A stretch of DNA of 64,000 bases, from assembly GCA_963669175.1 (NCBI GenBank), contig OY769902.1, forward strand, positions 32,001 to 96,000, given 5' to 3'. Below the pieces are notes generated by a model. It made no database searches. It saw only the letters and a program-made list of their open reading frames with translations, and was not told the DNA's origin. Positions 14,405 through 25,852 of this stretch are shown piece by piece. This DNA is from a bacterium. GTDB taxonomy: Bacteria > Electryoneota > Electryoneia > Electryoneales > Electryoneaceae. The first letter of the stretch is position 1; every line of letters starts with the position of its first letter. The position numbers and the translations under genes were made by a program.

Positions 14405-15076
14405 ATGAGCCTCTGGACGATTTTCCTGCATGCTTCCATCGTGAACAAGCTGCTGCTTGTCATTCTGTTGGGAGCTTCGGTTTTCAGTTGGGCGATTGTC
14501 ATCGATCGTTTCCGTTATTTTCGTCGGTCACGTATCGCCGACCTGGCATTCCTGGAAGCGGTCGGGCGAGCCTGGACCCGCAAAACACTGCACAGCGCAG
14601 CGACTTCCACGAACGATTCTCCGGTTGGAAAGATTTTTCTCGCCGCAGAAGCGGAAGTCATGGCGCGTGGCAATGCGACAGTTAAAGCCTGGACCGAACT
14701 GCTTGAGATTGAACGTGAGGCCCAGCGTCCCGAGGGCGAACGTGGTCTGCCGATCCTCGCGATTATCGCCAGCGCCAGCCCGTTTGTCGGATTGATGGGA
14801 ACGGTCTGGGGAGTGATGGTAGCGTTCCTTCGGCTGGCGGAACTCCAGGGCGGGCAACCGGCGCTGGAAATGGTCGGTCCCGGTATCGCGGAAGCGTTGA
14901 TTGCTACAGCCGTAGGTCTGTTCGCAGCTATTCCGGCCGTGGTCGCATACAATGCGTTTGTCGCACAACAACGGAACCTGCAACGTCGTGCCACCGATTT
15001 CATCCGACGCCTGGAAGTGGCCATTTCTATCCCGCCCAAGGGACGTGAAGAAGACGGCGAAGAGGCCGACGCATGA
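14405..15076 (+). CDS. tolQ: MotA/TolQ/ExbB proton channel protein
   Basis: SPFVGLMGTVWGVM...GPGIAEALIATAVGLFAAIPAVVAYN. Confidence 0.85.
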   Translation: MSLWTIFLHASIVNKLLLVILLGASVFSWAIVIDRFRYFRRSRIADLAFLEAVGRAWTRKTLHSAATSTNDSPVGKIFLAAEAEVMARGNATVKAWTELLEIEREAQRPEGERGLPILAIIASASPFVGLMGTVWGVMVAFLRLAELQGGQPALEMVGPGIAEALIATAVGLFAAIPAVVAYNAFVAQQRNLQRRATDFIRRLEVAISIPPKGREEDGEEADA

Positions 15077-15543
15077 TGGGCGTCAACAATAAAAAGGGCG
15101 AGGATGACGGCCTTGAAGGACTGGCAGAAATCAACGTAACCCCGTTGGTGGATGTCTTTCTTGTCCTGCTGGTCATCTTCATGATCACTGCCCCGGTGAT
15201 CAAAACCGCCCTGGAGATGGGATTGCCCGAGTCGGAATCGGCCAATCCCAACCCGGCCCAGGGATTGACGGTGAAGGTGTTCGCCGATTCTACCATGTTC
15301 ATCGTGACCGATGATTATGAAGAACGAGTTTTTATCGGCGCATTTGGCAACCGTTTCAAGGCCATCTGGAACGATATGGATGACGAAGGCAAACGTCGTC
15401 CTGTATTCCTCGCGGCAGACGAAACCATACCCTACAGTGTGATTATTTATGCCTTGGATGTGATGCGTCAGTCCGGTGTTAAGGATATCGGTCTGCTCAC
15501 CCAGAACGCCAAGGAAGCCAAACGCCGGGGGAGACGAAAGTGA
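15073..15543 (+). CDS. tolR: ExbD/TolR family protein
   Basis: EINVTPLVDVFLVLLVIFMITAP; overlaps the tolQ stop. Confidence 0.85.
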   Translation: MMGVNNKKGEDDGLEGLAEINVTPLVDVFLVLLVIFMITAPVIKTALEMGLPESESANPNPAQGLTVKVFADSTMFIVTDDYEERVFIGAFGNRFKAIWNDMDDEGKRRPVFLAADETIPYSVIIYALDVMRQSGVKDIGLLTQNAKEAKRRGRRK

Positions 15544-16358
15544 CGACCTGGCAGTTCAGAAACGATCCACAATGGAAAAGCAGTGTGCGCCTTGCCCTGA
15601 TCTTGCACGGTGTGCTGCTTGCGTTGTTGATCATACTGCCACAATTTTCCTTTGATTCCAAACCCCAGGAAATCCAGTTCGTGCGCCTGATGGGTGGTGG
15701 GGATCGTACACCCGGCTGGATTACGTCAACCGAACGCCAGGTAACCGAAGCGAAGGTGCATGACGGCCTTCCGGTGCAACCCAAACCGCAGCCACGTGAA
15801 GAAGTGAAGACCGAACCAGCGCCTTCTCAGCAGGAAACTGTGCCCGCTTTGCAGGAAGAGACGTCCAAGCCGAAAGAGGAAACGACCCATCAGGAAGAAA
15901 CACCTGCATTACCGGAACCGGAAGTGAAGAGTAATGCGGAAGAAGGATCCAGCGAGACCGCTCGTGGTGAAGGCGCTCAGACGGAAGAGGTGAAAGAAGA
16001 AGCGTCATCGGGTACAGGAGTGGCACGTGCGCCGGGACCGGAAGGGCCGGGTCGCGGGGCCACCAGTGACGCTCAATTCGCCGGGGCGGATCGTTACATG
16101 CTGAGTGTGGAAGCGGAAGTGAACAAGAATTTCCGTTACCGCAGCCAGGGCAGCAAGCAGGTTTCAGCCGTGGTGCATTTTTACATCAACAAACGTGGAC
16201 GGGTAGAAGAACTGATCCTGATGCAGGCCAGCGGCATTGCCAGCCTGGACCAGGCCGCACAGTCCGCCGTAAAACGATCCGGCTTTCCTCCGCTCCCCAT
16301 GAGCTACCCGGCATCGCGCCTCGGGATTACCTACCGGTTCTATAACCTGAAGAAGTAG
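15540..16358 (+). CDS. TonB/TolA-like energy transducer
   Basis: N-terminal TM helix with His (LILHGVLL), Pro/Glu-rich linker, C-terminal SGIASLDQAAQSAVKRS-GFPPLP. Confidence 0.85.
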   Translation: MTTWQFRNDPQWKSSVRLALILHGVLLALLIILPQFSFDSKPQEIQFVRLMGGGDRTPGWITSTERQVTEAKVHDGLPVQPKPQPREEVKTEPAPSQQETVPALQEETSKPKEETTHQEETPALPEPEVKSNAEEGSSETARGEGAQTEEVKEEASSGTGVARAPGPEGPGRGATSDAQFAGADRYMLSVEAEVNKNFRYRSQGSKQVSAVVHFYINKRGRVEELILMQASGIASLDQAAQSAVKRSGFPPLPMSYPASRLGITYRFYNLKK

Positions 16359-17004: not shown

Positions 17005-18741
17005 ATGCGGCTTCATTTTCGTGCTAACCTGACCTGCCTGCCAGGGATAGTCCTGTTGTTCACTGTATTGTTTTCAACCGTCCCGGTATTTGCCGATTGG
17101 CCGGACACTGGCTTGCAAGTCACTCCACCGGGTTGTACAGGTCGTTACAAAGTCGTCCCGGATGGTGTGGGCGGCGCCTATATCGGCTGGTATGTCGAAG
17201 TCTCGCCCGATATGATGGGCTCTCTGGTACAACACATCGACGCCGATGGGAACATCCTGTGGGATCCACAGGGAATCTCAGCCGTAGACCCGGATTCTGC
17301 CCACAGAACAATCTTCTATGACCTGCTGGCAGATGGTGAGGGTAACCTGCTGGTACTCTCCATAGCGCGATTGCTTGATCAGGTGGGAAGTTTTTTTACA
17401 GTTCAGAAACTGTCACCATCGGGTGAACGGTTGTGGGGCGCTACGGGACGTAGTGTTACTGGAGATTCGTCATCTACAACAGATGCAGGCTTCTCAGATC
17501 CCATGGTACTGGATGAGAACGGCAATATCATTGTTATTTACATGGCGATGGATGATGACGAGCTCTTGTGCTTTTCAAGCAAGCTGGATACGAATGGAGA
17601 TGTAGTCTGGACCACGCTGCTCGGTGATCATTTTACCTCTCATGGACAGTGTGTTCCTGATGGTGAGGGGGGCGTCATTTATGCCAGGCGTGGAGTCAAT
17701 GCAGACTATGATCATGCGATCCTTGGGGCGCGTGTGGACTCCGAAGGCAACAGCGTTTGGTGGCCCAGTAACTATTATCTCCTGAACCGTCAACCGGACA
17801 ATAATGTATATCCCACACAACACTTCAAGCTGATTCCCAGGCCGTCTGGCGGGGCGCTGATGGTCGCACAGTCTTTCAGTGCATCCAATATCCCGCCTTG
17901 TGAATTTCTGTTAGTCGTCATTGAGCCGGATGGAGACTTTCCACTTGGTCCAAGAGGAGCTACGATATTTCGCTGTGACGACATGGTTGATTTTGATATG
18001 GTAATGCATGATGATATCCTGTATGTATCCCTTTACAACAGGGACAGCCCACCGGAACGTGGGCATTATGTCTTCCGAACGGATGAAAACGGAACACTCC
18101 TGGATCCGGGGGGGTACGTAGAATTCGATACAACTTCACTGCGTGGTAGTGAAGTAAGAATTGAACCAACAACAGACCATCTCCTGATCGCCTATTCGCG
18201 AAAGGTATCTCCCACCAACTCCACGCGTTACCCCCATTGCCAGGCATTCACGGCTGAAGGGAGTTTTCCCTGGGGTGCTGTTGGGCATCTGATTGCGGAT
18301 ACGACACTGCCCTATGACGGTTACCGCCTGCAAACCTGCAATGTGGGTGGCGATACGGTTTTTGTTGCCTGGATGCCTAATGAGACCAGTGTTGTGACTG
18401 TAATGCCCGTTTATCCAGACGGCAGCACACCCTGGTATGACAACCCGGTGCAGGAAAGGTCAACCGCGCCGAATCCCCAGAGTTTCCGGATAGATTCGGT
18501 TTATCCCCAACCCTTCAACCACCAGGTCCATATCTCGTTCTTCCTACCTGAACCGGACCGGGTGACCTTTACCATATACAACCTGAACGGTCAGGTTGTG
18601 CAGAACATGACACACCATTTCGAGCAAGCCGGACAGCAGGTGATGAACCTTGATTTGAAAACAACAGCAGCCGGTGTCTTCTATATAAAAGTAATCAGCG
18701 GAGATCAAAGCTGCGTCTCTAAGCTGGTGCATATAAAATAG
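17005..18741 (+). CDS. Secreted beta-propeller-like repeat protein with T9SS-type C-terminal domain
   Basis: Signal peptide; repeats PDGVGGAYIGW...QHIDADGNILW; C-terminal VYPQPFN...IYNLNGQVV...AGVFYIKV. Confidence 0.8.
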   Translation: MRLHFRANLTCLPGIVLLFTVLFSTVPVFADWPDTGLQVTPPGCTGRYKVVPDGVGGAYIGWYVEVSPDMMGSLVQHIDADGNILWDPQGISAVDPDSAHRTIFYDLLADGEGNLLVLSIARLLDQVGSFFTVQKLSPSGERLWGATGRSVTGDSSSTTDAGFSDPMVLDENGNIIVIYMAMDDDELLCFSSKLDTNGDVVWTTLLGDHFTSHGQCVPDGEGGVIYARRGVNADYDHAILGARVDSEGNSVWWPSNYYLLNRQPDNNVYPTQHFKLIPRPSGGALMVAQSFSASNIPPCEFLLVVIEPDGDFPLGPRGATIFRCDDMVDFDMVMHDDILYVSLYNRDSPPERGHYVFRTDENGTLLDPGGYVEFDTTSLRGSEVRIEPTTDHLLIAYSRKVSPTNSTRYPHCQAFTAEGSFPWGAVGHLIADTTLPYDGYRLQTCNVGGDTVFVAWMPNETSVVTVMPVYPDGSTPWYDNPVQERSTAPNPQSFRIDSVYPQPFNHQVHISFFLPEPDRVTFTIYNLNGQVVQNMTHHFEQAGQQVMNLDLKTTAAGVFYIKVISGDQSCVSKLVHIK

Positions 18742-19660
18742 GATACCCCCTGCGTTCTATACTACTTATGGCTGAATTGCCCGGTACACCCCTTTTTCGC
18801 CTATGTGCTCCCTGTGACAATAGTGAACCAGTGTGATTAAACGGAATACTCGCCCTGTTCAGCTCTTCCATTGAAACATCATGCCGTTGACCATCCCCCC
18901 AGCCAGCATGCCCCCTCCATGATCGGAAACTTCAGCTCTGATTTTTCTCTCCATTTTCCAGAGAATTGACGCAGCATTTCACCCCTTGCTTGGCCCAAGA
19001 TGACAATAGCAAATATTTCGATTTGATTCTTGTCATTTAATTATTGTTGTTGCACAATCATTCAACACTATTACAAAATAATACTGATTATTATCTAATT
19101 AATGCATATTATTATACGATTATATCTAGCTATTATGAGACTCCTGGAGGCATAAAAATTTGTTCTATTCATAATACCCTGTTGTTGACTGGCTATTATA
19201 ACAGTTACTAGAGTATTGATTATGCATATACTATTAGCACTATCATATTTGGTGTTATTGGTAATATTTCACCAATATCGTATTATTTCCTGAGATATAT
19301 CACAAACCAAGAATATGCAAAATTTATCTAATATACCAATTGCATAATATTTGTATTCATTATATTCATCATTTTAATATTTTATATGTTATTACAATAT
19401 GATATCAAAGGTTATTAAGATCTTATTGCAAATATTTAATTATGTTTTAGAAGTCGTATAACAAGTATTAGTGCCATTATTGTCATTTATTAAGCATCCT
19501 GCACTGCTTCCCTGTTGATCTTACGTACATCCTGATTGCAGTAAAACTGAATTGTTGTAACTGGTTGGTTAAGACGATTCTGCCATTCGGGAATACGTTT
19601 ACTGCTCTGGCGAAAGAATGGCCTAACGGAAAGAAGCACTCATCAAAGGAGGGAAGTACC

Positions 19661-20053
19661 ATGAGGAAAACAGTCATTCTGACAGCAGTATTATTGGCCA
19701 TGTTCCTGTTGAGCACGACAGGTTACTGCTGGGTGTGGGAAGAGATTTTCCGGGAAAACACAATCCGGTTTGCCAGGGTTGATGACCACCCGACATCCGA
19801 ACCTGACCAGGCGGCATCGAAGTTCATAAGCACGGATGATGATGTCAGCGCGGTACGTCTGGCTATTTGTGACGATCATGGTTTCCCGGTCCATTATCAT
19901 GTCGTCTTTAATCCTGTGGTAAACACGGGATATGATCTCATCACCACACAGTATGATGATCTGTATGGGTACGAAGCATCCATGACCGTAACTGGCGGAA
20001 GCTTTATGGCATTTTCGCAATATGTTAGAGCCAAGATCATCTATCCGTACTGA
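19661..20053 (+). CDS. Small secreted protein of unknown family, paralog 1 of 5
   Basis: Start at ATG 19661 after GGAGGG, by alignment with paralogs; MRKTVIL...TGYC|WVWEEIF...SKF...DDDV...VHYH...AKIIYPY. Confidence 0.9.
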   Translation: MRKTVILTAVLLAMFLLSTTGYCWVWEEIFRENTIRFARVDDHPTSEPDQAASKFISTDDDVSAVRLAICDDHGFPVHYHVVFNPVVNTGYDLITTQYDDLYGYEASMTVTGGSFMAFSQYVRAKIIYPY

Positions 20054-20122
20054 GCAGGCTAATACCACGCCATAGCTCACGAGCTATGGAGACTCGATGT
20101 TCAATTCCGGGAGGAAAGAACG

Positions 20123-20515
20123 ATGCGTAAAACAGTTATTCTGATCACTGTGATGGTTGCCATGTTCCTCGTAACCAGCACGGCATTTTGTTGGGAATGG
20201 GAAGAAGTATTCCGTGAAAATACAACCCGCAACGCCAGGGTTGCTGGTCATCCAACATCAGAACCTGACCAGGCGGCATCGAAGTTCTTGAGCACAGATG
20301 ATGATGTCGCAGCGGTGTTATTGGCAATTCGCGATCCCTTCGGTGTTCCCGTTCATTATCACCTGGTCTTCAACCCGGCCGTCAACACAGCTTATGACCA
20401 CTTCAGCACCCATTACGTTGATCTCTACGGTTATGATGCTTCCATGACAGTTGCAGGTGGCGGTTTCCAGGCGAATACGGAATACGTGAAGGCGAAAATA
20501 GTCTATCCGTACTGA
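20123..20515 (+). CDS. Small secreted protein of unknown family, paralog 2 of 5
   Basis: GGAGG RBS; MRKTVIL...TAFC|WEWEEVF...AKIVYPY. Confidence 0.9.
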   Translation: MRKTVILITVMVAMFLVTSTAFCWEWEEVFRENTTRNARVAGHPTSEPDQAASKFLSTDDDVAAVLLAIRDPFGVPVHYHLVFNPAVNTAYDHFSTHYVDLYGYDASMTVAGGGFQANTEYVKAKIVYPY

Positions 20516-20584
20516 CAACCGTGATCCCCTCCCAACGCCTGAACATTTTGGGCTTGTGATGATCACTATTAGGAGGAAAGAACG

Positions 20585-20977
20585 ATGCGTAAAACAACCA
20601 TACTGATCACAGTTATGCTTGCCATGTTTCTCTTAACCAGCAATGCCTTCTGCTGGGAGTGGGAAGAGGTTTTCCGTGTGAATGAGATCCGCTTTGCCAC
20701 AGTTGCGGGCATCCCAACCTCTATCCCCGATCAGGCAGCCTCGAAGTTTAAAAGCACTGATGATGATGTAACCGGTGTACGGCTGACGATTTGTGACGGA
20801 GGTGGATTCCCTGTCCATTACCATTCCGTAATGAATCCGGTTGTAAATACCACCTACGATCTGGTTACAACTCACGTGGCTAGCTTATACCGGTACGAAG
20901 CTTCCATGACGGTTGCCGGGGGCAACTTCACAAACCTGAGCGAGTATGTGGAAGCAAAAATCACGTATCCATACTGA
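20585..20977 (+). CDS. Small secreted protein of unknown family, paralog 3 of 5
   Basis: AGGAGG RBS; MRKTTIL...NAFC|WEWEEVF...AKITYPY. Confidence 0.9.
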   Translation: MRKTTILITVMLAMFLLTSNAFCWEWEEVFRVNEIRFATVAGIPTSIPDQAASKFKSTDDDVTGVRLTICDGGGFPVHYHSVMNPVVNTTYDLVTTHVASLYRYEASMTVAGGNFTNLSEYVEAKITYPY

Positions 20978-21047
20978 CGCAGGTATTGTCAATTCCGTGA
21001 GCATTTGATCATGGAAGTCTAAAGTTCATTTTGGGGAGAAAAGAAAA

Positions 21048-21437
21048 ATGCGTAAAACAGTCATTCTGCTAACTATCCTCCTGTCGATAGCACTGTTGAG
21101 CAACGTCGGTTTCTGCTGGGAATGGGAAGAAGTGTTTAGGGCCAACCTGGAACTATCCAGCATGGTTGGAGATCCTTCACCCGATATACCTGCTTTTGCT
21201 TTTTCGAAGTTTGAAAACACGGATGATGACGTTGACGCTGTGAAACTGGTCATTATACAGGGTGGAATGCCGGTACATTACCATATGATAGAAAATCCTG
21301 CAACCAATTTCACTTACACTCTCACCACGATCCATTTCATAGACCTGTTTGGATGCCCGGCCTATATGTCCGTATGCGGCGGTAACTTCGAGAATCCAAC
21401 AGAGTACGTTGCTGCAAAAATCGTGTATCCGTTCTAG
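21048..21437 (+). CDS. Small secreted protein of unknown family, paralog 4 of 5
   Basis: MRKTVIL...VGFC|WEWEEVF...AKIVYPF. Confidence 0.9.
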   Translation: MRKTVILLTILLSIALLSNVGFCWEWEEVFRANLELSSMVGDPSPDIPAFAFSKFENTDDDVDAVKLVIIQGGMPVHYHMIENPATNFTYTLTTIHFIDLFGCPAYMSVCGGNFENPTEYVAAKIVYPF

Positions 21438-21512
21438 TGAATCGATTCAACAGAAGACCCTGATTCTGTTTCATGGCCTTCTACCATCGTTTGTTGAAAG
21501 AGGAGTATTACC

Positions 21513-21899
21513 ATGCGTAACACAGCTATTGTCCTTGCCATCCTGCTGTCAATGTTCCTGATCAGCGGTTCGGCGTTCTGCTGGGAGTGGGAACAGGTAT
21601 TCACGGCCAATGCCGAGTTGATCGACATCATTACTGACAACGGGATTACGAATCCTGATCAGGCGCTTTCCAAGTTTGTCAATTATGATGATGACGTAAC
21701 AGATGTCAAGCTGGCGATTATCCACAATGGTATTTGTGTTCACTACCATGTTGAAGTTAATCCAGTCGTGAACACGGACTATTACATGATCACAACGCAT
21801 TTCGACGATCTCATCGGAAGCGAAGCTGTCATGGTCGTCGCGGGTGGAAATTTTCAGCCGCGTGAATATCTGGTTGCCAAGATCGTTTATCCTTTCTAA
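21513..21899 (+). CDS. Small secreted protein of unknown family, paralog 5 of 5
   Basis: GAGGAG RBS; MRNTAIV...SAFC|WEWEQVF...AKIVYPF. Confidence 0.9.
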   Translation: MRNTAIVLAILLSMFLISGSAFCWEWEQVFTANAELIDIITDNGITNPDQALSKFVNYDDDVTDVKLAIIHNGICVHYHVEVNPVVNTDYYMITTHFDDLIGSEAVMVVAGGNFQPREYLVAKIVYPF

Positions 21900-21912
21900 C
21901 GAACGAACTTTT

Positions 21913-21947
21913 GCAGAAGTCCATGATCACGCATCATGGACTTCTGC
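21913..21947 (+). terminator. Strong hairpin closing the five-gene array (terminator or mRNA stabiliser)
   Basis: Perfect 15-bp stem GCAGAAGTCCATGAT-cacgc-ATCATGGACTTCTGC followed by TGTTGTTCT. Confidence 0.7.
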
Positions 21948-22027
21948 TGTTGTTCTATCGCTCTTTCGATATGGACTTGCAGGCAGTTAACACCTGGACA
22001 ATGTCCAGGATGATTTTCGGAGTAATC

Positions 22028-23818
22028 ATGCGTATTCCGGTTCAGGTACTTGTCATCTTGCTGTCGATTTCGTTCGGAGTAAACGCCGCAGTGTTGAACA
22101 TTCCCGGCGATTACGACAAAATCCAGGATGCTGTTGACCAGGCACAGCCGCTTGATACTGTGCTCGTAGCGGACGGCATCTATCATGAACAGGTTATTGC
22201 CTGGGAGGTACCCATTACACTGGCAAGCCTGTTCCTGCTGGATGGCGACTCGAGCCATATCAGTCAAACCATCATTCATCCGGATGATTCCACCCGTTAC
22301 CAGTCAGCGCTTCGGATGGCACTTGCAGATGGTGACACGTCCCGGGTATGCGGACTGACTTTTACCGGCGGGCACCTGGACAGGATGGGGCATAATGACA
22401 GCACACGTTATGGCGGCGGGATTTATACTCATGGGGGAACAGCCTGGATCGAGCACTGTATCATCCGCGACAATGTGGCAAGGATGGGCGGCGGAATCTA
22501 TCTGGATGATGCCAATGGAATCATCACCAACTGCATTGTGGACAATAACCGTATGACAGCCGGTGGCGCAGGGATTCACATGGAGCTGTCCGAACACGCC
22601 TCCAAATCGCTTTACTCTGCTTCGATTACCCGCTCTTCGATTACTCGTAATGAACCCTACAGTATCAATGACATCAATAACAGTGGCGGTGGAATCCTCA
22701 TTACCGGTAACCGGAATGTTCACTGTGACATCATTGACAACACCATTACAGACAACAATGCGTTTGAGATGGGCGGTGGGGTACTTGTCGGGATCAATAC
22801 CGGCAACGGTACCGCTGCCAGCACGTGTACGATGACCGGAAATACAATCCATAATAACGGCGCCTGTGCATTTGGCGGTGTGGGAATTGCCGGGGATATC
22901 GTTGAGCTGAGTTTCCTGAACAACAACGTAACGCAGAACCTGGCAGCGCGTGAATGGGGGTCCGGGATTGGCCTGCTGAATAGCCCGGAAAATCCATCGT
23001 ACGAGATCGCTGGGAACCATTTCGTTGAGAACAAAGGGACTATCGGCGGAGCTGTCCTTTCTTTCGCCAACGCCCGTATCCATGACAATATCTTCATGAA
23101 CAACCAGGGACGTACTATCTCAGCAATTATTTTCTGGACCAACCCGGCGGATACTGGCAAAGTTCTTTATGTTGAACGGAATATTTTCTACGGTCAGCAA
23201 TTCGACACCGAACAACCGGACAAGTATATTGCCGCAGTTTCGCCAGCATCCGACAATATCTATTTACACCTGCACCAGAACGATTTCATCAACAATCAGT
23301 CTTACGCTTCGGGATTACATACCATTGCGCACCAGCGTCACCCCGGTGTTCTTTACGCAGAAAACAATTACTGGGGGCATGCAAGCGGTCCGTATCATCC
23401 TGAGGAAAATCCCGAAGGCCTGGGCGACACGGTACGTTCCAATATCAGCATACTTCCTTTCCTCACGGAACCGGCTACAGCCCCGCACTCAATCAAACCT
23501 ATATTCCCGGAAAACAATGCCGCGATTTCTCCTGAGAAGAATACCTTTTCCTGGACTGCGGCGATTGATCTTACAACCATGACACCGCTTACCTACACGC
23601 TGGAGCTGTCCGAAGAACCCGGTTTTTCGAATACCCGGACAATCCCGGCCGGACAGGATACAAGCGTTGTAGTGGAACAGGTTGATCCTGATCGAAAATA
23701 CTACTGGCGCGTTTATGCGGAGGACTCCTTCGGCCTGCGTGGATATTCGAAGACAGCCACCTTTGTCACCAGTAGCAGCATTGCCAATACGAGAAGCGCG
23801 ACCAGTACACATCAATGA
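22028..23818 (+). CDS. Secreted right-handed parallel beta-helix repeat protein with C-terminal Fn3-like domain
   Basis: ATG 22028 after GGAG; NIPGDYDKIQDAVD...DTVLVADGIY; many GGGI repeats; AENNYWGHASGPYHP; YYWRVYAED. Confidence 0.82.
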   Translation: MRIPVQVLVILLSISFGVNAAVLNIPGDYDKIQDAVDQAQPLDTVLVADGIYHEQVIAWEVPITLASLFLLDGDSSHISQTIIHPDDSTRYQSALRMALADGDTSRVCGLTFTGGHLDRMGHNDSTRYGGGIYTHGGTAWIEHCIIRDNVARMGGGIYLDDANGIITNCIVDNNRMTAGGAGIHMELSEHASKSLYSASITRSSITRNEPYSINDINNSGGGILITGNRNVHCDIIDNTITDNNAFEMGGGVLVGINTGNGTAASTCTMTGNTIHNNGACAFGGVGIAGDIVELSFLNNNVTQNLAAREWGSGIGLLNSPENPSYEIAGNHFVENKGTIGGAVLSFANARIHDNIFMNNQGRTISAIIFWTNPADTGKVLYVERNIFYGQQFDTEQPDKYIAAVSPASDNIYLHLHQNDFINNQSYASGLHTIAHQRHPGVLYAENNYWGHASGPYHPEENPEGLGDTVRSNISILPFLTEPATAPHSIKPIFPENNAAISPEKNTFSWTAAIDLTTMTPLTYTLELSEEPGFSNTRTIPAGQDTSVVVEQVDPDRKYYWRVYAEDSFGLRGYSKTATFVTSSSIANTRSATSTHQ

Positions 23819-24001
23819 GGAATTAATTCGAATTGCTTGTATAATCTGAATATTCAGCAGAATGTATTTATTGAAGTATTAGATGATTACATAGCCAGGC
23901 AATGACTTGTCAGCAATTCGAGAACTACGGTAGTGGTTTCCCGATAACCCCACCGTCCAGCGTCGCCTGTTTGGCGCTCATGGCGAGTCAACGGCTGCCT
24001 T

Positions 24002-25852
24002 TTACCGCACCAACAGCAGGCGTTTTGTCAATGTCTGCACCTCTGTCTGCATCCTCACAAAATACACTCCGGACGGCAGACTATCCGCATTCCAGGCAAA
24101 TTGGCGATAGCCAGCTTGCAGTTTGCCATTGTGCAGGGTTGCCACGTGCTGTCCCAACACATTAATAACATCGAGTTCAACCACGGCCGTACGTTCCAGA
24201 TCGACCTGTACAATCGTCTGGCCATTGAACGGGTTCGGATATGAGGACAGAATCGCGAAGTCGCGCGGGACGTTCCTGCCGGATGTCCTTTCCGGAGCAT
24301 CCACAGTTCCGATAAACTGCCATCTGTCGATGACACCATCATTATCCAGATCTTCACCCGGATCAAGCAGACCGTTTCCGTTGACATCTTCCCCGTTATA
24401 GGCGACCTGCGCCCATTCGGAGTTGGTATAGAGATTCGCCCGACGCGCCTCGGAATCCGCCCCATCTCCCTGCCAACGTCCCCCAACAACCGCGAAGGCT
24501 ACATGCAGACGTTGCCCGGGAAGCAGATTCGGGTAGGGACCGTGACTGGTCAATAAAATCCAGCTCTGCTGATGATCCATGTCTGTCGGGATGTTCTCGT
24601 AATCCGGATGTCGCGTCATATGCACATAGCGTTGCTCTTCTGTGACGAGCATGGGCCAATCCTGGGGGAACATTGATCCCAGCCATACCCAGGGATGGAA
24701 ATAGGTGGCTGTTGTATCCTGGGAAGGTTCAGCGCCAAGCATGCGAACCCCCAGGTAACTCTGGGACCAGCCTGCATCGCCATCATAGTCGTACCCGATA
24801 CCCATGTTATAATCCTGGGCAAATCCCGGCATATTGTCATACCAGCTCCAGCGCCCTCCCGGACCGCCGTCATCATCATAGATATTCGTGTAGTTCATGT
24901 TCCCGATGGATGCATCTGTCCACACGCCAAACCTGGGTTGCTGAATCACATTCCCCAGCCATACGGTATCGCCAACATCGTATTCCAGCACATCCCTCGT
25001 CTCATATTCATAATAACCATACTCTTCAGCGATGAAATAATCATCCGGAATGTTGGTGATGGTATAATACAGAATGACAAAATCATCCCCGTACTCGAAG
25101 TTCCATGCATAGGCTTCCTGCACGACATGCACTCCCAGCGGCTGATGATCCGGGATATGGTATTGCTCGCCGGGAATAGTGGTGTTCGTATCGGTGTAGG
25201 CGCAGATCAGATCCTGGTGACTGACAGCGTCCGGGTGATGAAGCAGTGCGTAGTTCCGGTACGGACTGCTTGCCGACGTATCAGTCAGAATGGAACGGGT
25301 AACGATGGTATCCCAATCGGTTGTGCCGAAGCTGATAATACCGTCTTGAATGGGCGCTTCGAGAACGTCGTTAAACACGACCACACTGTCAGACGCCACT
25401 CGTGACAGGTCGAACCGTTTGTCCGCCTTGGCCAGGTGCTGAAAGATCGGGTTCCACTCGATTTGATTCGTACGAGCGACAGTGAACTCCATCCCGCCGT
25501 CATCATAATGAAAGACACCGTCATAGATCGCGGTGGACACCAGGCGTTCACCATCTTTCTGCCCACCGATCCAGATCCCGGCATAAGACAGGTGCTCTAC
25601 CTGGAAACGGGTGCTGTCTGTACGAAGCTGGTACCAGCAGGAGGGCTGCCCTTCTGTGTTAAATCCCTGCCCCAGTATCCCGATGTTGGTCACGGTCAGG
25701 CCGAGATTGCCCACGCTGGTGTAATGCAGGTAATCTTCGTCCAGGGTGGCGCGTTGCGGATGGTTTGTCCGTGGTGAGGCCGCAAGCGTGATTGAAACCA
25801 TAATCAGAAGCGAAAAGCTGTAAAGCAAATACTTCTTCAGCGTAACAGTCAT
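24002..25852 (-). CDS. Secreted hypothetical protein with T9SS-type C-terminal domain
   Basis: Signal peptide; VGNLGLTVTNIG; Ca-binding-like EDVNGNGLLDPGEDLDNDGVID; SYPNPFN...LPSGVYFVRM. Confidence 0.82.
   Translation of the reverse strand: MTVTLKKYLLYSFSLLIMVSITLAASPRTNHPQRATLDEDYLHYTSVGNLGLTVTNIGILGQGFNTEGQPSCWYQLRTDSTRFQVEHLSYAGIWIGGQKDGERLVSTAIYDGVFHYDDGGMEFTVARTNQIEWNPIFQHLAKADKRFDLSRVASDSVVVFNDVLEAPIQDGIISFGTTDWDTIVTRSILTDTSASSPYRNYALLHHPDAVSHQDLICAYTDTNTTIPGEQYHIPDHQPLGVHVVQEAYAWNFEYGDDFVILYYTITNIPDDYFIAEEYGYYEYETRDVLEYDVGDTVWLGNVIQQPRFGVWTDASIGNMNYTNIYDDDGGPGGRWSWYDNMPGFAQDYNMGIGYDYDGDAGWSQSYLGVRMLGAEPSQDTTATYFHPWVWLGSMFPQDWPMLVTEEQRYVHMTRHPDYENIPTDMDHQQSWILLTSHGPYPNLLPGQRLHVAFAVVGGRWQGDGADSEARRANLYTNSEWAQVAYNGEDVNGNGLLDPGEDLDNDGVIDRWQFIGTVDAPERTSGRNVPRDFAILSSYPNPFNGQTIVQVDLERTAVVELDVINVLGQHVATLHNGKLQAGYRQFAWNADSLPSGVYFVRMQTEVQTLTKRLLLVR

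Follow-up and report, generated by a model that had tools for sequence, protein, structure and literature searches.

Genes and features of the locus

We analysed a 64,000-nt stretch of the genome of a bacterium of the family Electryoneaceae, phylum Electryoneota (assembly GCA_963669175.1, contig OY769902.1, positions 32,001 to 96,000 of the forward strand), referred to below as the window. At positions 19661-21899, it carries a tandem array of five paralogous genes for small proteins with putative signal peptides, followed by a hairpin and a gene for a right-handed parallel beta-helix protein. A recurrent cassette of small jelly-roll gene, hairpin, and beta-helix gene is the main new content of this work. 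The features on which the analysis centres are as follows.

19661-20053 (+): copy 1, 130 aa, with a signal peptide of about 23 aa and a predicted 107-aa jelly-roll domain; nested in a longer TTG frame (19565-20053)
20123-20515 (+): copy 2, 130 aa, with the shortest tree branch; the copy used for modelling
20585-20977 (+): copy 3, 130 aa, from the open reading frame (ORF) list, alignment, and selection analysis
21048-21437 (+): copy 4, 129 aa, from the same three sources
21513-21899 (+): copy 5, 128 aa, adjoining the beta-helix gene
21913-21947 (+): hairpin with a 15-bp stem (7 G-C) and a 5-nt loop, then UGUUGUUCU; folding z -5.2, equalled by 0 of 200 shuffles
22028-23818 (+): candidate partner gene starting at ATG 22028, 596 aa, with a signal peptide, a right-handed parallel beta-helix, and FN3

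An earlier note on this DNA had described five co-oriented genes of 128-130 aa, each with its own ribosome-binding site and about 70 bp apart, and this description was accurate. The intergenic gaps within the array are 69, 69, 70, and 75 nt, the repeat period is 462-465 nt, and a GGAGG-like site lies 6-9 nt 5' of the ATG in all five genes. Every motif that the note had called invariant was recovered in the five-copy alignment (C23-W24-x-W26-E27, S53-K54-F55, D59-D60-D61-V62, V77-H78-Y79-H80, N84-P85-x-x-N88, A106-x-M108-x-V110-x-G112-G113-x-F115, and Y121-x-x-A124-K125-I126-x-Y128-P129). Copies 2-5 are 70, 68, 50, and 52% identical to copy 1, respectively. Pairwise synonymous differences among the copies are saturated (proportion of synonymous differences, pS, 0.71-0.86), with a non-synonymous proportion (pN) of 0.16-0.34; thus, all five frames are under purifying selection and are not chance ORFs, and the copies are old paralogs that were each retained by selection, with no recent amplification. 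A tree of ten relatives placed the five copies in a single, moderately supported clade (83/86). The proteins are acidic, with isoelectric points (pI) of 4.2-4.9, and contain 0-2 Cys.

The signal peptides of the array proteins were read by eye from the sequence. The residue before the Cys (-1) is F or Y in all five copies, and the lipobox [LVI][ASTVI][GAS]C, the consensus at the signal-peptide end of bacterial lipoproteins, is not matched. As the signal peptides of the relatives end in A-x-A directly before the W, without Cys, the A/G-F/Y-C of the window copies is best read as positions -3 to -1 of a signal peptidase I site. The only N-terminal Cys, beside the predicted cleavage site, is confined to this genome and is absent in the G001 and G003 copies. 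The statement that the five proteins lack a type IX secretion system (T9SS) tail was also upheld, with no match to Por_Secre_tail or to a C-terminal sorting domain (PF18962/TIGR04183) in any copy using Pfam and NCBIfam.

Rarity of the family

No Pfam or NCBIfam model matched the five copies (Pfam E up to 1), and Pfam at E up to 10 gave no relevant family for ten family members. A word-indexed search of 5.8 billion clusters yielded 568 candidates, from which only the five window proteins were returned as family. Eight proteins were found in an exhaustive profile search of 1.84 billion representatives (E up to 0.001), including two of the window's own and two true relatives (P0007, 128 aa; P0008, 133 aa). 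P0006 and P0009-P0011 were rejected as relatives because they are long unrelated repeats whose scores were summed over 5-23 repeat stretches. The family is therefore unrecognised, as had been suggested. Mature-only profiles recovered the five copies and no further ones among the 13,862 ORFs of the window's genome.

Strong matches among 61 genomes of the phylum were limited to G001 (same genus, two loci) and G003 (another genus), and 3 of 16 genomes within the taxonomic family matched at E up to 0.001. The member in G006 was located by its position; independent confirmation came from a mature-only profile built on the eight core members, which matched it over its full length (E 1.1e-6 in a set of 443 ORFs). 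The array family is a real near-orphan that is found in a few related bacteria.

Thirteen positions are invariant in the eight core members (W1, W3, N10, S30, I46, H55, H57, P62, V87, G90, Y98, Y105, and P106 in mature numbering). The H-x-H motif (H55-x-H57) is among them, and its first His is not clearly kept in G006, the most distant member. D-D-D-V is specific to this genome, and the relatives carry DNT, EPN, or GTD at the D-D-D position.

DUF7689 (PF24738) was rejected as the identity of the family, as one of ten members matched, over the full length, with 17.8 bits (E 0.0055) against a cut-off of 22.6 bits. A genuine DUF7689 protein in a relative (L063 721-1161, G007:C343; 137 bits) has no signal peptide and stands in an unrelated context; it adjoins a 149-aa protein in what looks like a two-gene module. 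A literature search with the term DUF7689 found no paper. The only match to the family profile in a sequence search of the PDB was AcrIF9 (E 0.47), and the ESM Atlas gave no lead (best score 0.89, clusters unnamed).

Predicted fold

Mature copy 2 was modelled by AlphaFold2 from the eight-sequence alignment with a mean predicted local distance difference test (pLDDT) of 96.0 and a predicted template-modelling score (pTM) of 0.86, giving eight strands and no low-confidence segment. The N-terminal strand E2-7 (WEWEEVF) and the C-terminal strand E99-104 both lie within the predicted fold (block pLDDT 94-97). The earlier note had proposed subunits that polymerise by donor-strand exchange; the modelled monomer is a complete eight-stranded sandwich with both terminal strands in place, which argues against this proposal. 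Its picture of conserved strands and variable loops held only loosely. The termini are conserved, and the invariant residues are divided about evenly between the two kinds of position, being found at 21 of 58 predicted strand positions and 18 of 49 non-strand positions.

Foldseek against the PDB returned 14 matches at E up to 0.001, all with a template-modelling (TM) score of at most 0.57, including Ena2A, p24 GOLD, members of carbohydrate-binding module (CBM) family CBM6 (1uxx and 1gmm), C1q, the Tk-SP C-terminal domain, and PirA. In a structure search independent of Foldseek, a single chain reached a Z of at least 8, namely GOLD 5azx_A (Z 8.1, root-mean-square deviation (rmsd) 3.1, 94 of 107 residues aligned). 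The next matches, at Z 6.9-7.7, were CBM16 (Z 7.7), CD109/TEP-type domains, SGBP-B (Z 7.6), the Tk-SP C-terminal domain (Z 7.6), TNF-like 4-1BBL, and XepA/YomS, with PirA at Z 6.2; this range is common for unrelated beta-sandwiches. A viral structure library gave the same generic jelly-roll picture. The small protein is thus predicted to be a complete generic jelly-roll beta-sandwich without an assignable family. The C-terminal aromatic residue had suggested a small outer-membrane barrel of eight strands; this was rejected by reasoning, as the strands are of 6-9 residues, the sequence is highly charged, and the matches are jelly rolls rather than barrels.

The downstream beta-helix gene

The gene at 22028-23818 could also start at ATG 22001, and the listed TTG 21911 lies inside the hairpin. 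Members of its family share a signal peptide, GGGxY-type parallel beta-helix repeats, an invariant NYWG...SGPYHP..NP.G.GD motif, and FN3. Relatives are labelled Beta_helix, NosD, Chlam_PMP, and Por_Secre_tail by Pfam and are named 'right-handed parallel beta-helix repeat-containing protein', 'T9SS type A sorting domain-containing protein', or 'hypothetical' in their sources. The homologs beside members of the array family are about 670-690 aa long with a T9SS type A tail. T9SS tails are likewise present in the homologs aligned from relatives and in this genome's other paralogs, and the window protein is exceptional in having none. It gave only a weak fn3 match and no Por_Secre_tail match in Pfam, and no tail remnant or frameshifted tail follows the stop at 23818 in three frames.

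A PDB sequence search with the beta-helix family gave weak partial matches only (NosD, E 0.23). NosD-type maturation was rejected because TIGR04247 scored 20.7 bits against a cut-off of 300 and covered only the N-terminal 35 residues. No NosF/NosY-like ABC transporter was found by Pfam among the 11 flanking proteins scanned (11953-31968).

Recurrent pairing of small and beta-helix genes

The conserved pairing with the downstream beta-helix gene is the main contextual clue to the array and was missed by the earlier note. All four sequence-detectable homologs outside this genome (G001 C224, G001 C177, G003 C37, and G006 C112) are single-copy and lie 60-111 nt upstream of a homolog of the 22028-23818 gene on the same strand. 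The earlier note had stated that mostly singleton homologs would refute the polymer idea, and the homologs found are of this kind: G001 has two separate single-copy loci, and G003 and G006 have one each.

A profile search identified nine full-length beta-helix paralogs in this genome, and five of them have a small signal-peptide-like ORF upstream (95-165 aa, at most 250 nt upstream, and on the same strand, as judged with a crude signal-peptide detector). The small ORFs found are 128-143 aa long. By the same criterion, a small upstream ORF precedes 1 of 272 ORFs whose match to the beta-helix profile is confined to its FN3/T9SS-tail part, and it precedes 15 of 1524 other ORFs of at least 400 aa. 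Fisher's test gave p = 5e-8 for this enrichment, which is overstated by the non-independence of paralogs: two of the five cassettes are recent duplicates, so the pairing events are not independent. The small ORFs of the four cassettes outside the window lie 39-71 nt upstream of full-length beta-helix/T9SS paralogs, and two of these cassettes are near-identical duplicates.

G000:C1:286020-286415 (-): small signal-peptide ORF
G000:C1:1941196-1941591 (+): small signal-peptide ORF
G000:C1:4670404-4670835 (-): small signal-peptide ORF
G000:C1:123460-123846 (-): small signal-peptide ORF

Three tandem beta-helix/T9SS paralogs at G000:C1:4259192-4266068 (-) have no small gene upstream. When the best beta-helix match of each relative genome was inspected, a small ORF accompanied 8 of the 10 loci belonging to the taxonomic family and 3 of the 9 that do not; nine more loci without a complete large ORF had been dropped from this count, and one tail-only row was excluded. 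G013 and G014 each have two tandem small secreted genes (about 52% identical) upstream of the beta-helix gene, which is an independent duplication in another genus.

L020 472-897 and 969-1379: tandem small genes of G014
L021 3770-4195 and 3287-3760 (-): tandem small genes of G013

The positional analogs have 97-113 mature residues, a pI of 4.1-6.0, and mostly an aromatic C-terminus or a Y-P motif. Sequence homology between the array family and these proteins was rejected as not demonstrated by hhalign, profiles, or BLAST. hhalign of A6 with A5 aligned the signal peptide only, the mature-only comparison of A3 with A7 had a probability of 0.24%, and pairwise BLAST in a 25-sequence set gave weak links only (E 0.001-0.05).

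Hairpin and AT-rich upstream region

The hairpin at 21913-21947 separates copy 5 from the beta-helix gene. In 10 of 13 folded cassettes, the last small gene is followed by a comparable hairpin (z -2.95 to -7.6), and the hairpin sequences are unrelated; the three exceptions have z of -0.5, +1.6, and +1.9. G014 has an additional hairpin between its two small genes, and several cassette hairpins are followed by U-rich runs. The spacers inside the window array fold weakly (z -2.0 to +0.1). From its sequence, the hairpin would be a terminator, an attenuator, or a 3'-end stabiliser that raises the small transcripts over those of the beta-helix gene.

19001-19480 (no strand): AT-rich island of 480 nt with 24.4% GC (genome 50.1%), in the 919-nt gap upstream of the array

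Only 10 regions in 5.45 Mb, the island among them, are as AT-rich (0.04% of 480-nt windows). A 14-nt direct repeat, identical at 13 of 14 positions, flanks the island at 19026 and 19476. Promoter-like hexamers occur in it no more frequently than in shuffles. A repeated mobile element was rejected because the island is unique in the genome (blastn). It is presumed to be a promoter or regulatory region, or it could be the remnant of an insertion. Rfam gave no match on 18000-24500.

Predicted binding

Complex prediction for mature copy 2 with residues 22-596 of the beta-helix protein scored 0.53 (runs 0.59, 0.53, and 0.17), which was returned with the verdict 'weak support', and the best of three controls scored 0.00. 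The runs agreed in at least 80% of contacts, and the pLDDT of the partner was at least 84. Of 157 solved complexes, 116 reached the mark for this score, as did 2 of 215 mismatched pairs, and those reaching it at 0.60 or under were only 18 of the 157 solved complexes and both passing mismatches; these counts apply only roughly, as own alignments were used. With the conserved pairing as a prior, the score gives a modest rise in the odds of binding and is not proof.

Genomic surroundings

By Pfam, the 11 flanking proteins include a response regulator/kinase, ExbB, ExbD, TonB, T9SS-tail proteins, M16 peptidases, and Lon; no PapD-like chaperone, usher, or sortase-like gene was found among them. Two of the T9SS-tail proteins have no other Pfam domain.

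17005-18741 (+): T9SS-tail protein, 578 aa, tail E 4e-10
24002-25852 (-): T9SS-tail protein, 616 aa, tail E 1e-9

An ExbB-ExbD-TonB trio at 14405-16358, upstream of the T9SS-tail gene at 17005-18741, looks ordinary. Genome-wide, some of the 272 ORFs with a profile match confined to the FN3/T9SS-tail part exceed 10,000 aa, and this set indicates a very large T9SS secretome.

Comparison with known systems

Detached CBM-like jelly rolls (CBM6, CBM16, and the C-terminal domain of SGBP-B) resemble the array proteins in having eight strands and about 100 residues, in being aromatic-rich and exported (strands and export predicted here), and in being encoded beside the gene of a large secreted protein. 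The structural scores (2zew_A, Z 7.7, rmsd 3.1, 97 aligned; 7kwc, Z 7.6, rmsd 3.1, 100 aligned) fall in a range common for unrelated sandwiches. Unlike the array proteins, known CBMs are usually fused to an enzyme rather than encoded by separate tandem genes, and no Pfam CBM matched here. PirA of the PirA/PirB binary toxins of Photorhabdus and Vibrio is also a small stand-alone jelly roll that works with a larger partner, and pirA lies just upstream of pirB. The fold matches to PirA are weak and generic (3x0t_A, Foldseek E 1.1e-3, TM 0.45; 7fcn_A, Z 6.2), and the candidate partner is of the beta-helix/FN3 type, unlike the Cry-like pore former of the toxins; nothing points to toxicity.

The best structural match, 5azx_A, belongs to p24/TMED GOLD, a eukaryotic cargo-receptor domain. 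It has 10% identity and no sequence-family link to the array proteins, and its score is only 0.4 Z above unrelated rows; thus, only a common fold is shared. Small secreted beta-sandwich subunits are also known from Bacillus Ena endospore appendages and chaperone-usher pili. Ena subunits are jelly rolls with an N-terminal connector whose conserved Cys residues cross-link subunits. Ena2A was the first Foldseek row by E-value (2e-4), yet with a TM of 0.35 and an rmsd of 9.4, and no family-wide N-terminal connector Cys is present here. Chaperone-usher pilins have an incomplete Ig-like fold without the last strand and a free N-terminal extension, whereas the array protein is modelled as a closed eight-strand sandwich. 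The array proteins did not match the sequence model of TasA/camelysin (Pfam E up to 1 for the five copies and up to 10 for ten members).

Interpretation and alternatives

The reading that we favour, and hold tentatively, is that the array reflects a lineage-specific tandem expansion, its five genes encoding a small Sec-exported jelly-roll protein of about 105 aa that serves as a dedicated partner of the downstream beta-helix/FN3 protein. In the proposed mechanism, the array would be transcribed from the AT-rich upstream region, and the unit would largely end or be stabilised at the 21913-21947 hairpin, so that the cell would produce more of the small proteins than of the beta-helix protein. 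After removal of the signal peptide, each small protein would fold as a complete monomeric jelly roll, bind the beta-helix protein, and act in trans as an accessory module. We favour a role in ligand or glycan recognition or decoration, comparable to a detached CBM or to PirA beside PirB, on the grounds of the predicted type of fold, the invariant aromatic and His residues, the rapid divergence, and the diversification of the copies. The five diverged copies may provide alternative specificities or may serve beta-helix paralogs without a small gene of their own.

Several observations weigh against a dedicated partner. No small gene accompanies four of the nine beta-helix paralogs of this genome or three of the six closest beta-helix homologs in relatives (G001 C187, G003 C38, and G003 C66), and with so many beta-helix genes lacking one, a cis-encoded partner is not required by the beta-helix protein. 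The small proteins at other cassettes have no significant sequence similarity to the array family, and a single superfamily is not shown. The AlphaFold2 model of a G014 positional analog had low confidence (pLDDT 65.8, reached by only one of five models), too low to serve as evidence; it has eight strands at similar positions, and its VIA list overlaps that of copy 2 in several rows. Binding rests on a weak in-silico pass in which one run of three scored 0.17. The hairpin may be a full terminator, in which case the genes would be separate transcription units linked by adjacency only. As the beta-helix protein of the window has no T9SS tail, the destination of both proteins is unclear, and five diverged partners for one beta-helix protein are not obviously needed. 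The partner role is a prediction from sequence, context, and models, as are export, the expression ratio, and physical binding.

These points leave room for other accounts. The array proteins might be stand-alone periplasmic or released jelly rolls, lectin-like or metal-binding, whose copies bind different ligands and which are merely co-located or co-regulated with the beta-helix protein. The fold class is dominated by carbohydrate-binding and recognition modules; H55-x-H57, W1, W3, and Y105 are invariant in the eight core members; a strong hairpin separates the array from the beta-helix gene; and the complex score is weak. We nevertheless regard this account as rather unlikely, since the recurrent same-strand position upstream of beta-helix genes, across genera and with sequence-unrelated small proteins, is hard to explain without a direct functional tie; for metal binding in particular, D-D-D is not conserved, and the first His of H-x-H is doubtful in G006. 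Alternatively, each small protein might bind the beta-helix protein in the periplasm as an inhibitor, an immunity protein, or an escort for folding, being produced ahead of it and in surplus and keeping it inactive or export-competent until secretion. Such a role would fit the gene order, with the small gene first, the excess of small transcripts implied by the hairpin, and the weak complex-prediction support for binding. It would also agree with the missing T9SS tail, through which the small proteins would stay periplasmic. However, the generic labels Beta_helix, NosD, and Chlam_PMP predict no enzymatic activity for the beta-helix family, five diverged inhibitors of one target would be unexpected, and many beta-helix paralogs have no small gene. 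No such partner appeared in the titles and abstract openings returned by literature searches on T9SS cargo. We consider this role distinctly unlikely.

The small proteins could also be subunits of a homo- or hetero-oligomer (a filament, a sheath, or a TNF/C1q-like trimer), with the beta-helix protein as an anchor, tip, or assembly factor. Both chain ends are strictly conserved, the placement of a hairpin behind the small genes recalls major-subunit operons, the Foldseek matches include Ena2A/Ena3A endospore-appendage subunits as well as C1q/TNF-like trimers, and a Cys stands next to the predicted cleavage site in the five window copies. Against this, the Ena matches are poor (TM 0.35, rmsd 9.4), the terminal strands lie inside a complete monomer model, the N-terminal Cys is absent from all relatives (A-x-A before W), the sequence-detectable homologs are single-copy, and no chaperone, usher, or sortase-like gene occurs among the 11 neighbours scanned. 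We consider oligomeric subunits very unlikely. A donor-strand polymer is not supported, given the complete monomer model, the single-copy homologs, the lack of assembly genes, and the non-conserved N-terminal Cys; oligomers formed without donor strands, such as TNF-like trimers, are conceivable. A more specific form of the partner reading is that several copies of the tail-less jelly rolls dock on their cognate beta-helix protein and ride the T9SS where the partner is tailed, giving a two-component surface structure with exchangeable specificity heads, for which the array would be the head repertoire. This is very unlikely as it stands.

Implications

T9SS bacteria have hundreds of tail-bearing cargo proteins, most of which are without a known function. 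If the favoured partner reading is true, the small, fast-evolving protein without a tail, whose gene recurs directly upstream of those for a single family of beta-helix cargo, would be a partner specific to that cargo. No component of this kind was described in the titles and abstract openings returned by literature searches on T9SS cargo. The docking form, if true, would be a case of cargo hitchhiking and modular surface recognition not described for the T9SS. If the binding is not real, the array would represent a lineage-restricted family of small periplasmic beta-sandwiches, which is of modest interest. As only eight sequences sufficed for a confident model, the family lends itself to structure determination and binding assays. 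If the binding is real, the pair would be a handle on the role of the abundant beta-helix family and would direct attention to the route by which a protein without a tail gets to where it acts.

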